From assembly GCF_044647545.1 (NCBI RefSeq), contig NZ_CP172818.1: a DNA stretch of 64,000 nt, one strand, 5' to 3'. How positions within the stretch are numbered: position 1 is the stretch's first letter; the number at the start of each line of letters is the position of its first letter. The notes under the pieces were generated by a model that saw nothing but the letters and a program-made list of their open reading frames with translations, ran no database searches and was not told where the DNA came from. Shown in pieces: positions 4,177 through 62,680 of the stretch. Source of the stretch: Escherichia coli (lineage in GTDB: Bacteria; Pseudomonadota; Gammaproteobacteria; Enterobacterales; Enterobacteriaceae). The position numbers and the translations under genes were made by a program.

Positions 4177-4254
4177 TGCGTATCTGCGCACGTCGAAGAT
4201 AAAAAAGGCGTGCTACAGTGACGACAGAATCCCTTTATGGAGTATCCACGCGTT

Positions 4255-5241
4255 ATGATACGTTTCGCTGTGATTGGTACGAACTGGATCACTCGCCAGT
4301 TCGTCGAGGCCGCCCATGAGAGCGGTAAATACAAGTTAACCGCCGTCTATTCCCGCAGCCTTGAACAGGCCCAGCACTTCGCCAATGATTTTTCTGTCGA
4401 GCATCTGTTTACGTCGCTGGAAGCGATGGCAGAAAGCGATGCCATTGACGCGGTGTATATTGCCAGCCCAAATTCCCTGCACTTTTCCCAGACACAACTT
4501 TTCCTTAGTCACAAAATTCATGTGATTTGCGAGAAGCCACTGGCGTCGAATCAGGCGGAAGTGGATGCCGCCATTGCCTGTGCGCGGGAAAATCAGGTGG
4601 TGCTGTTTGAGGCATTTAAAACGGCCTACCTGCCGAACTTTCATCTGTTACGCCAGGCGCTGCCGAAAGTCGGCAAACTGCGTAAAGTCTTTTTCAACTA
4701 TTGCCAGTATTCCTCGCGGTATCAGCGTTACCTGGACGGAGAGAATCCCAACACCTTCAATCCGGCATTCTCCAACGGTTCGATTATGGATATCGGCTTT
4801 TACTGCCTGGCGTCGGCGGTGGCATTATTCGGTGAACCGAAAAGCGTGCAGGCAACCGCCAGTTTGCTGGCAAGCGGTGTGGATGCCCACGGCGTGGTGG
4901 TGATGGATTACGGTGATTTCAGCGTTACGTTGCAGCACTCAAAAGTGAGCGATTCTGTCCTGGCAAGCGAGATTCAGGGCGAAGCGGGATCGCTGGTGAT
5001 TGAAAAACTCTCTGAATGCCAGAAAGTCTGCTTTGTACCGCGTGGCAGCCAGATGCAGGATCTCACCCAGCCACAGCATATTAATACCATGCTCTACGAA
5101 GCAGAGCTGTTCGCTACCCTGGTGGATGAGCATCTGGTGAATCATCCAGGGCTGGCGGTCAGTCGTATCACCGCCAAACTGCTGACTGAGATCCGCCGCC
5201 AGACTGGGGTGATTTTTCCGGCAGATAACGTAAAACTATAA
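4255..5241 (+). CDS. ygjR: Gfo/Idh/MocA-family NAD(P)-dependent oxidoreductase
   Basis: Start chosen at MIRFAVIGTNWI (Rossmann GxGxxG-like N-terminus), 328 aa. Confidence 0.8.
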   Translation: MIRFAVIGTNWITRQFVEAAHESGKYKLTAVYSRSLEQAQHFANDFSVEHLFTSLEAMAESDAIDAVYIASPNSLHFSQTQLFLSHKIHVICEKPLASNQAEVDAAIACARENQVVLFEAFKTAYLPNFHLLRQALPKVGKLRKVFFNYCQYSSRYQRYLDGENPNTFNPAFSNGSIMDIGFYCLASAVALFGEPKSVQATASLLASGVDAHGVVVMDYGDFSVTLQHSKVSDSVLASEIQGEAGSLVIEKLSECQKVCFVPRGSQMQDLTQPQHINTMLYEAELFATLVDEHLVNHPGLAVSRITAKLLTEIRRQTGVIFPADNVKL

Positions 5242-5289
5242 TTGCCAAAGTAAAACAGTGTAAAAGGTATGTAACAGACCATTGACTGA

Positions 5290-5523
5290 CTGAATGGTCT
5301 GTCATACTTTGTTACCTGCAAAGGGGAGTAACTTCATTGTCGGTCGATCGTCATTACGATGTGTGAAAAACCACATCCGGTCACCGGGCAACCCGAAAGG
5401 AATACGCAGACGTATTCCTTTTTTGTTGTAAGTGAGACCTTGCCGGAAGGCGAGGTCTATGCATAAAAAGCAGCGGCTGACGTCTTCCGACGTTGGCCGT
5501 TTTTTTATGTGTAAGGAACTTCT
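5290..5523 (+). promoter_or_regulatory. alx 5' leader (yybP-ykoY-type Mn/pH-responsive leader with hairpin+U-run attenuators)
   Basis: Long untranslated leader before alx; hairpin aggaatacg-caga-cgtattcct followed by a T run at 5398-5426, and a second hairpin + T7 near 5465-5493. Confidence 0.5.
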
Positions 5524-6489
5524 ATGAATACTGTCGGCACGCCGTTGCTATGGGGCGGATTCGCTGTTGTTGTCACCATTATGCTGGCTATCGACCTGTT
5601 GTTGCAGGGGCGTCGTGGGGCACATGCCATGACCATGAAACAGGCTGCGGCCTGGTCGCTGGTCTGGGTGACGCTGTCGTTACTGTTTAACGCCGCTTTC
5701 TGGTGGTATCTGGTGCAAACCGAAGGTCGCGCCGTTGCCGATCCACAGGCACTGGCCTTTCTCACGGGTTATCTGATTGAGAAATCGCTGGCGGTCGATA
5801 ACGTCTTTGTCTGGCTGATGTTGTTCAGCTATTTCTCTGTTCCGGCGGCATTACAACGTCGCGTGCTGGTGTATGGCGTGCTTGGGGCGATTGTTCTGCG
5901 TACCATCATGATCTTCACTGGTAGCTGGCTGATTTCACAGTTCGACTGGATCTTGTATATCTTCGGTGCCTTCCTGCTGTTTACCGGCGTGAAGATGGCG
6001 CTGGCTCATGAAGATGAATCAGGCATTGGCGACAAGCCGCTGGTGCGCTGGCTACGCGGTCATTTACGCATGACCGACACCATCGACAACGAGCATTTCT
6101 TTGTGCGTAAGAATGGTTTGTTGTATGCCACGCCGCTGATGCTGGTGCTGATTCTGGTGGAGTTGAGCGACGTGATTTTCGCCGTGGATAGTATTCCGGC
6201 TATCTTCGCCGTGACCACCGATCCGTTTATTGTGCTGACCTCAAACCTGTTTGCGATCCTCGGCCTGCGTGCGATGTATTTCCTGCTGGCAGGTGTGGCA
6301 GAGCGTTTCTCGATGCTCAAATATGGTCTGGCGGTGATTCTGGTGTTTATCGGTATCAAGATGCTGATTGTCGACTTCTACCATATTCCGATCGCCGTCT
6401 CGCTGGGCGTGGTGTTTGGCATTCTGGTGATGACGTTTATTATCAACGCCTGGGTGAATTATCGGCATGATAAGCAGCGGGTAGAATAA
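5524..6489 (+). CDS. alx: TerC-family inner membrane protein (putative Mn exporter)
   Basis: 321 aa multi-pass membrane ORF. Confidence 0.9.
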
Positions 6490-6812
6490 TTTTTAATCTG
6501 CCTAAGCCGTGTACCCTGTCATCAACATGAGCACCGTTTTCTCCCTCTCCCCAAAAGGGGCGAGGGGACTGACCGAGTACTTTTTTGACGTTGTCATCAG
6601 TCTGGAAGCCGCACGTTGGGCTTTATTTTTATGTCAAATAAATGTAACCATTAAGTTGCAAAATATGACCTCTCTTTAAAATCCAGCATTTTTCGCTTCC
6701 CGAAGCTGTAACTTTCCTTATACTCGACCTTGCAAACACTTTGTTACATCCTGAAAGATGCGTCGACAGAACGCACCAGGGATGTGCGACAACACAATGA
6801 AAGGATCGAAAA

Positions 6813-25032: not shown

Positions 25033-25409
<377 letters not shown>

Positions 25410-60512: not shown

Positions 60513-60711
60513 TGTAATATCCTTTCTCTTTCTTAGACAGTACCTTACGGCACTGGTGTTAATACCCGATCTTCTGCGCATCCTCGCGACTAATGACAAC
60601 CCTAACCCAGCCCAATGTGGGTAAAGCCTCTCATTAGCCGCGCGAACCTCTGCAACGGAAGATCATTCATAGCAACAATACATTAGTTTCCAGTGAATTG
60701 CTGCCGTCAGC
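60513..60711 (-). promoter_or_regulatory. pnp 5' leader (autoregulatory/RNase III-processed region by position)
   Basis: ~200 nt untranslated region between the rpsO terminator and the pnp TTG start. Confidence 0.45.
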
Positions 60712-60745
60712 TTGAAAAAAGGGGCCACTCAGGCCCCCTTTTCTG
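60712..60745 (-). terminator. rpsO rho-independent terminator
   Basis: Plus strand gaaaaaaggggccactcaggcccccttttc, a GC-rich stem flanked by A and T runs. Confidence 0.7.
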
Positions 60746-60758
60746 AAACTCGCAAGAA

Positions 60759-61124
<366 letters not shown>

Positions 61125-62597: not shown

Positions 62598-62680
62598 TGG
62601 CCTGATAAGACGCGCCAGCGTCGCATCAGGCAATCCATGCCGGATGCGGCGTAAACGCCTTATCCCGCATGGAACCCTAA
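62598..62680. repeat. REP element between infB and rbfA
   Basis: gcctgataagacgcgccagcgtcgcatcaggca ... gccggatgcggcgtaaacgccttatcc. Confidence 0.6.

Follow-up and report, generated by a model that had tools for sequence, protein, structure and literature searches.

The alx leader of Escherichia coli, a divergent three-way-junction member of the yybP-ykoY riboswitches: comparative analysis of its aptamer, terminator hairpins and alternative folds

The sequence in front of alx (ygjT) in the window, a 64-kb stretch of an Escherichia coli chromosome, is almost certainly the alx 5' untranslated region known as SraF, PRE or the alx riboswitch, acting as an Mn2+ switch in the manner proposed below. 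In this study, we examined the elements of this leader, their conservation and covariation, two pairings that exclude each other and the TerC family of the downstream gene product; the transcription start site, the responses to Mn2+ and pH, termination, pausing and the translational output are taken from the literature.

Work on the alx leader RNA goes back to 2001-2009. Initially listed as a small RNA, SraF, of ~190 nt (PMC9472077), it was later described as a pH-responsive element (PRE) and then became one of two yybP-ykoY Mn2+ riboswitches of E. coli. A first-pass annotation of the window had suggested a riboswitch of the yybP-ykoY or pH-responsive type at this site, and this identity holds, as the element is published as the Mn2+- and alkaline-pH-responsive riboswitch SraF/PRE. 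The published E. coli element and the one in the window are the same, with no difference of substance: the published alx residues, the products of ~108 and ~190 nt and the helices B/P4, C/P5 and D/P6 all map onto the window. The hairpins, pauses, alternative folds and Mn2+/pH response of the alx leader are already known and published.

Locus, promoter and transcript start

The alx coding sequence (5524-6489; like all promoter and leader features given below, on the plus strand) encodes a protein of 321 amino acids with a Pfam TerC match (E = 1.3e-53), annotated in RefSeq as "TerC family membrane protein Alx". The open reading frame upstream of the leader (4237-5241) encodes the Gfo/Idh/MocA oxidoreductase YgjR. 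RefSeq annotation shows no riboswitch at the alx leader. A nucleotide search with a 331-nt query revealed 100% identity to NZ_CP033850; of 5426 complete E. coli genomes, 5419 contain a match of at least 95% identity, always flanked by ygjR and alx. Across the same 331-nt stretch, K-12 MG1655 differs from the window strain at ~1% of positions.

A putative alx promoter is located at 5282-5308, with a -35 element TTGACT (5282-5287), a TG dinucleotide (5300-5301) and a -10 element CATACT (5303-5308). It was not called by a promoter scan tool because its spacer measures 15 nt; ATTGAC and TGnCATAnT are nevertheless kept across genera in 47 aligned promoters, and the position is consistent with the literature-derived +1. 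We infer this +1 to be position 5317 by mapping of published residue numbers, as it is the sole start that fits all of the more than 15 numbered residues (PMC12153347, PMC3874183), namely A11, A37, A114, U125, C127, A131, A132, G134, C135, A137 and G138 as well as A149-153, C155 and A156. With this start, the two U-runs of the leader end at +108 and +190, which are the published product sizes. The alx leader therefore comprises 207 nt (5317-5523) rather than the ~230 nt assumed in the first-pass annotation, whose starting position, 5290, is within the promoter spacer and not in the leader. A Shine-Dalgarno (SD) sequence AAGGA (5513-5517) precedes the start codon (5524-5526). The 251-nt region 5290-5540 folds with a z-score of -7.7 relative to shuffled sequences; as this region takes in untranscribed promoter DNA, that fold was kept for the z-score alone and all further folding was done from +1. 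An open reading frame at 5294-5431 (45 amino acids) was considered as a leader peptide and rejected, since it begins upstream of +1.

Between the ygjR stop codon and the alx +1, an inverted repeat ACAGACCATT...AATGGTCTGT, extended by GTATG/CATAC, was observed at 5267-5307. The repeat, with core arms at 5274-5283 and 5293-5302, encloses the alx -35 element and abuts the -10 element. In the 47 Enterobacteriaceae promoters, 9 of 15 pairs of these arms show compensatory changes (47 cells vs 19.5 ± 3.8 in shuffled alignments), and 69.6% of cells are paired, against 32 to 46% in slid controls. The hairpin looks like a ygjR terminator-type hairpin that overlaps the alx promoter, and it may couple ygjR termination to use of this promoter. 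On the other side of the gene (6490-6640), a C/G-rich inverted repeat ctccctctcccc...ggggcgagggga is followed by T6, and a second terminator-like hairpin with a T-run (6605-6624) lies ahead of sstT; presumably these hairpins represent the alx terminator region. Other Rfam matches above the gathering threshold in the window were RNase P RNA (25033-25409, minus strand), SraG (60571-60742, plus strand), the ribosomal S15 leader (60972-61086, minus strand) and naRNA4 of the REP type (62599-62669, minus strand).

Aptamer architecture and relation to the yybP-ykoY family

A genome scan with Alx yielded 80 loci in Enterobacterales, including Escherichia as well as more distant genera such as Serratia, Yersinia and Pantoea, and 72 Enterobacterales leaders were aligned. 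The motif AAGGGGAGTA was found 5' of alx in 78 of the 80 loci. The aptamer domain, delimited by covariation and by our own covariance model, R1, built from the aptamer alignment, extends from 5317 to 5444 and is of an alx-type, three-way-junction yybP-ykoY architecture. Its rising strand (5318-5334) consists of the P1.1 5' strand (5318-5324), the 5' side of L1 (GGGGAGUA, 5323-5330) and the P1.2 5' strand (5331-5334). The left leg (5340-5387) comprises P3.1 (5340-5350/5378-5387), L3 with UCAUUAC at 5351-5357 and the P3.2 hairpin (5358-5377). After P4, the falling strand (5430-5443) contains the P1.2 3' strand (5430-5433), the 3' side of L1 (GAGA, 5434-5437) and the 3' "switch" strand of P1.1, CCUUGC (5438-5443). 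The gap between P1.2 and P3.1 amounts to just 5 nt (5335-5339), so a P2 hairpin is impossible.

Three blocks are essentially invariant in the 72 leaders: GCAAAGGGGAGTAACTT, covering the P1.1/L1/P1.2 rising strand; the L3 core CGTCA..ACG; and GTAAGTGAGACCTTGCCG, covering the P1.2/L1/P1.1 falling strand and the start of P5. Helices P1.1 and P1.2 are themselves invariant, and covariation consequently speaks neither for nor against them. Compensatory changes were found in 6 of 10 pairs of P3.1 and 5 of 6 pairs of P3.2, values that were reached by none of 500 shuffles. For the aptamer together with the ON-state helix described below, 98.3% of cells in the 72 leaders are paired, while slid controls gave 32 to 44%, and 17 of 39 pairs carry compensatory changes (105 cells vs 17.5 ± 3.4 shuffled). 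An RNAalifold consensus recovered P3.1, P3.2, the base of P4, P5 and P6. Model R1 gave a single match in the 64-kb window, at 5317-5444 (115 bits, E = 1.4e-25), and it matched 78 of the 80 alx loci, seven of them outside the training set (59 to 96 bits). No alx-type aptamer was detected by R1 upstream of alx in the remaining two of the 80 loci, from Rouxiella aceris and Atlantibacter sp. RC6 (L076 and L025).

The check proposed in the first-pass annotation was a covariance scan with the Rfam yybP-ykoY family; lack of a significant match, together with lack of Mn/pH-dependent regulation, was to count against the assignment, and no significant match was obtained. RF00080 (Rfam 15) did not match the leader in a 2.5-kb sequence (E ≤ 1), in the 331-nt query (E ≤ 10) or in the whole window at the gathering threshold. 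On the 139-nt aptamer alone, it was placed at the right position with 8.8 bits (E = 0.95), against a threshold of 45. The model also failed to match, at E ≤ 1, any of 20 alx leaders from orthologous loci in different genera. As a control, we scanned the crystallographically validated E. coli mntP aptamer and obtained 41.6 bits (E = 7e-10), likewise under the 45-bit gathering threshold. Since the mntP control also scored below the threshold and the 20 orthologues were missed, the RF00080 scan is not decisive, and its use as a refutation was rejected. The RF00080 consensus holds a P2 hairpin and an L3 of the sequence GUCAACAUAC. Because the model expects P2 and a longer L3, both absent in alx, the negative scan reflects the model and not the RNA. 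RF00080 seems poorly fitted to enterobacterial members. When it is aligned to the mntP riboswitch of E. coli K-12 (locus L002, 3462-3558), hardly any of the 3' half of its 177 positions is filled.

In the reverse direction, R1 scored 5.7 bits (E = 0.23) when run without filters on the mntP leader, with an alignment that was correctly placed and limited to the L1/P1 shell, GGGGAGUA...GAGACC. As RF00080 and R1 each fail, homology at profile level between the two E. coli paralogues, the alx and mntP leaders, is not demonstrable in either direction. The alx leader is instead placed in the yybP-ykoY family by a metal-binding core shared in L1 and apparently in L3, by its context and by published biochemistry. 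The alx leader shares several features with members of this family (RF00080; E. coli mntP, Lactococcus lactis yoaB, Xanthomonas oryzae). Its L1 has GGGGAGUA opposite GAGACC (5434-5439), which are the same motifs as in mntP; its L3 appears to be of the GUCA..UAC type and lies in a P3.1/P3.2 leg; its P1.1 is a switch helix whose 3' strand is common to the expression platform; and it precedes a membrane protein related to Mn export (TerC), the expression of which is reported to be activated by Mn2+. The family's association with membrane proteins of Mn homeostasis (TerC, MntP/UPF0016, P-type ATPase) recurs, with a TerC open reading frame downstream here and the aptamer preceding the alx orthologue in 78 of 80 loci.

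Unlike other yybP-ykoY members, the alx leader lacks P2, and with it the four-way junction, having a three-way junction in its place. Its L3 (GUCAUUAC, 5350-5357) sits at the expected position between covarying flanks and is invariant within the alx type; relative to the consensus GUCAACAUAC, it lacks 2 nt and has a different sequence. Furthermore, its P4 is long, variable and terminator-bearing, and the leader responds to alkaline pH. A three-way-junction aptamer with no P2 and a divergent L3 has been described (PMC12153347), including a crystal structure of an L. lactis chimera bearing the alx L3, and alx-like switches are reported to be restricted to Enterobacteriales (PMC12153347). This restriction agrees with the R1 matches in 78 of the 80 loci. 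In line with the literature, which keeps the alx leader in the family, we conclude that it represents a structurally divergent three-way-junction subclass that is not captured by the Rfam model.

Terminator hairpins and expression platform

Two hairpins followed by U-runs are present in the leader. P4 (5388-5429) consists of a base (5388-5392/5425-5429) and a distal hairpin that a terminator scan placed at 5395-5422, with 12 pairs, a loop of 4 nt and TTGTTG thereafter, and with U6 at 5419-5424. Direct reading gave a G/C-containing core of 8 bp at 5399-5418 with T6 at 5419-5424 (+103 to +108). The intrinsic-terminator-like hairpin previously noted at 5398-5426 matches this stem and T-run. Hairpin 1 forms the distal part of P4, a helix of the aptamer, and lies outside the expression platform. 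Three of the five pairs in the base of P4 show compensatory changes among the 72 leaders, a level reached by none of 500 shuffles. The distal part varies between 14 and 65 nt across taxa, and only 10 of 72 leaders (Escherichia and a few others) have a U-run of 5 nt or more after P4. Large insertions are also tolerated in P4. Given the variable length, the rare U-run and the tolerated insertions of P4, the first terminator is an addition to an aptamer helix in particular lineages and not a conserved part of the switch.

One such insertion was observed in Escherichia albertii NBRC 107761 (L005, 900-1075), where a REP-like element of ~177 nt within P4 is accompanied by duplication of the P4 hairpin tip. 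The insert has sub-threshold naRNA4/ES036 matches, and the aptamer is still recognised by R1 (65 bits). Long leader inserts occur as well in loci L013, L024, L033 and L048, that of L013 with ERIC-like sub-threshold matches.

The second hairpin, P6 (5472-5506), has a stem at 5472-5501 with the loop UUCC (5485-5488) and U7 at 5500-5506, which corresponds to the SraF 3' end. By terminator scan, it contains 13 pairs, 7 of them G-C, and its T7 spans +184 to +190. A second hairpin with U7 had been proposed "around 5465-5493"; the hairpin exists, but these coordinates are 8 to 13 nt too far upstream and miss the U7. P6 with its U-run was found in all 72 orthologous leaders, and three of its pairs show compensatory changes; on these comparative grounds, the second element is a core part of the expression platform and under selection. 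Terminator-like sites as such are weak evidence, with 5 in 1.6 kb vs 1.9 ± 1.5 in shuffled sequence. In Rouxiella aceris (L076, 1130-1200), a P6-like hairpin with U7 is located directly before the start codon, with no alx-type aptamer.

Both elements have been characterised in vitro. Hairpins B and D, the latter also named "P6 intrinsic terminator stem" (PMC12153347), [quoted passage not shown] (PMC9472077). Hairpin B yields the ~108-nt product at ~46% termination at pH 7.2 and ~43% at pH 8.5, and hairpin D the ~190-nt product at ~13% and ~10%, respectively, so that termination at both sites is approximately pH independent (PMC9472077).

The 3' strand of P1.1 has two possible partners, 5318-5324 in the aptamer or 5449-5456 in P5. 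The OFF-state hairpin P5 (hairpin C, 5437-5456), recovered by RNAalifold with 96% of cells paired, sequesters this strand, and P5 and P6 together have 95.7% of cells paired. In the ON state, an antiterminator helix P5/P6 (hairpin C/D) is formed between the 5' strand GGAAGGCG (5445-5452) and the 3' strand CGUCUUCC (5481-5488), i.e., the 5' arm and loop of P6. This helix and the P6 terminator stem are mutually exclusive. In 71 distinct leaders, 99.3% of cells of the ON helix are paired, against 49 to 72% in slid controls, and compensatory changes affect 3 pairs (13 cells), with variants such as GAAUGGC/GUCAUUC in Citrobacter and GAAAGG/CUUUY in several genera. The comparative data thereby lend independent evolutionary support to the ON-state antiterminator helix that was published for the Mn-bound active form (PMC12153347).

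Minimum free energy (MFE) folds computed with ViennaRNA from +1 follow the same alternatives. The 128-nt aptamer retains P1.1, and P5 supplants it once the transcript reaches 142 nt, where a pause has been published. Pause 1 (positions 142-144; PMC9472077) maps to 5458-5460 with +1 at 5317. In the full-length fold, G8-U13 pair with the spacer between SD and AUG (5518-5523), C16-U18 pair with AAG of the SD (5513-5515), and an extended P6 helix lies directly next to the SD. This predicted fold matches the published inactive form, in which the ribosome-binding site (RBS) is paired with the disrupted P1.1/L1 (PMC12153347). Across the 72 leaders, the unpaired probability of the SD core (3 to 5 nt) did not differ between free and ON-forced folds (median 0.47 vs 0.46), and only 15 of 72 MFE folds show pairing of the SD to the L1 strand. 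The ribosome landing interval from -25 to +3 became modestly more open in 58 of 72 leaders when the ON helix was forced, its unpaired fraction rising from 0.375 to 0.475. Computed start-site sequestration across taxa is thus weak and uneven, and the case for it rests mainly on published probing and reporters.

These published data include Mn-dependent probing changes in L1 and L3 (PMC12153347) and Mn-dependent reporters (PMC10197570). At alkaline pH, a translational reporter was induced 68-fold vs 1.5-fold for a transcriptional one, the former induction being lost upon deletion of the PRE, for which "two intrinsic terminators in PRE" are reported (PMC10197570). Since the reporters differ to this extent and termination is barely pH dependent, attenuation is a minor output. 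The control first suggested for this leader, by pausing/attenuation and start-site sequestration, therefore stands with regard to pauses, two terminators and RBS occlusion, all of which are published; the weight given to attenuation does not, as the output is mainly translational.

Proposed mechanism and alternative explanations

We propose that nucleotides 1 to 128 constitute an Mn2+-binding, yybP-ykoY-type aptamer, in which a right leg (P1.1-L1-P1.2) and a left leg (P3.1-L3-P3.2 plus P4) would be joined at a junction that is three-way because the P2 helix is missing. Without Mn2+, downstream sequence would capture the 3' strand of P1.1 into hairpin P5, whereupon the P6 terminator hairpin with U7 would form. 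The L1/P1 rising strand, now released, and an extended P6 helix would jointly occlude the ribosome-binding region. Part of the transcripts in this OFF state would stop at U7 (SraF, ~190 nt), and read-through mRNA would be poorly translated. Alkalinisation raises cytosolic Mn2+, and alkaline pH would tune the aptamer. With Mn2+ bound, P1.1 would remain closed, and GGAAGGCG in the loop and 3' strand of P5 would pair with CGUCUUCC in the arm and loop of P6; this pairing would destroy the terminator and free the RBS region, and the Mn exporter Alx would be made. Pausing of RNA polymerase at ~+142-144 and before U7 would open a time window for the choice of fold, and hairpin 1 with U6 at the P4 tip would also terminate transcription at ~108 nt, before the aptamer is completed.

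A different weighting of the outputs can be drawn from the comparative data, since among the parts of the expression platform only P6 with its U-run (72/72) and the covarying P5-loop/P6 helix are universal, and the computed occlusion of the SD is weak and varies between taxa. Alx-type switches would then act, ancestrally and in general, by attenuating transcription under the control of Mn, and translational control would be superimposed mainly in E. coli. Site B would be a throttle acquired recently in some lineages, through which about half of the transcripts are lost before the aptamer is complete, and the hairpin at the -35 element would couple ygjR termination to use of the alx promoter. 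We regard this combination as unlikely.

The original PRE model, as summarised in PMC3874183 and PMC9472077, assumed a ligand-free pH sensor, in which alkaline pH lengthens pausing at two sites and so favours the active fold, with Mn2+ being inessential. Among the pause and structure mutants that were studied, the pause-shifting substitutions A137G and C135U raise expression 2- to 6-fold (PMC3874183), which speaks for such a sensor. When the pauses were re-measured, however, they were shorter or unchanged at alkaline pH (PMC9472077), and the invariant L1/L3 metal-binding core across Enterobacterales is left unexplained by this model, which we consider improbable. Whether alkaline pH acts via pausing or via aptamer chemistry is debated.

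It is highly improbable that the hairpins are ordinary intergenic terminators or parts of a free-standing, trans-acting sRNA SraF that exert no control in cis on alx. Termination at both hairpins in vitro and the original cataloguing of the ~190-nt RNA as the sRNA SraF (both PMC9472077) would fit this explanation, as would the P6-like hairpin and U7 before alx in Rouxiella, where the aptamer is absent. Yet both hairpins lie downstream of the alx promoter and +1, the first is the tip of an aptamer helix with a covarying base, the arm and loop of the second covary with the P5 loop in the alternative helix, and deletion of the PRE abolishes the 68-fold induction (PMC10197570). As terminators of ygjR in particular, hairpins 1 and 2 were rejected owing to their position downstream of the alx +1; the upstream hairpin at 5274-5302 is the better candidate. 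We give even less credence to control by a leader peptide, in which a 22-codon upstream open reading frame (uORF, 5459-5527) would couple its own translation to alx initiation or to melting of the terminator. The uORF begins at the pause 1 site, spans P6 and ends in a TGA that overlaps the alx ATG (ATGA), and the frame is open in Citrobacter (L006). However, it has no well-spaced SD, its ATG is missing in many genera, Enterobacter has an early in-frame stop (72-leader alignment), the covariation is RNA-structural, and the uORF is unmentioned in the cited literature on the alx leader. It was rejected as not conserved.

The alx leader as an Mn2+ riboswitch can also be set beside classical terminator/antiterminator platforms (Bacillus subtilis yybP/mntP type, ribD FMN). 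As in these, P6 with its U-run competes with the P5/P6 helix, closure of the aptamer selects between them, and pause sites are located between aptamer and terminator. Unlike in these platforms, the output of alx is mainly translational, with P6 termination of 10 to 13% in vitro, and a second terminator resides inside the aptamer.

For the family as a whole, the analysis indicates that RF00080 misses the entire alx-type, three-way-junction subclass. Automated annotation such as PGAP therefore leaves a validated riboswitch unlabelled, and a negative covariance-model scan must not be counted as a refutation.
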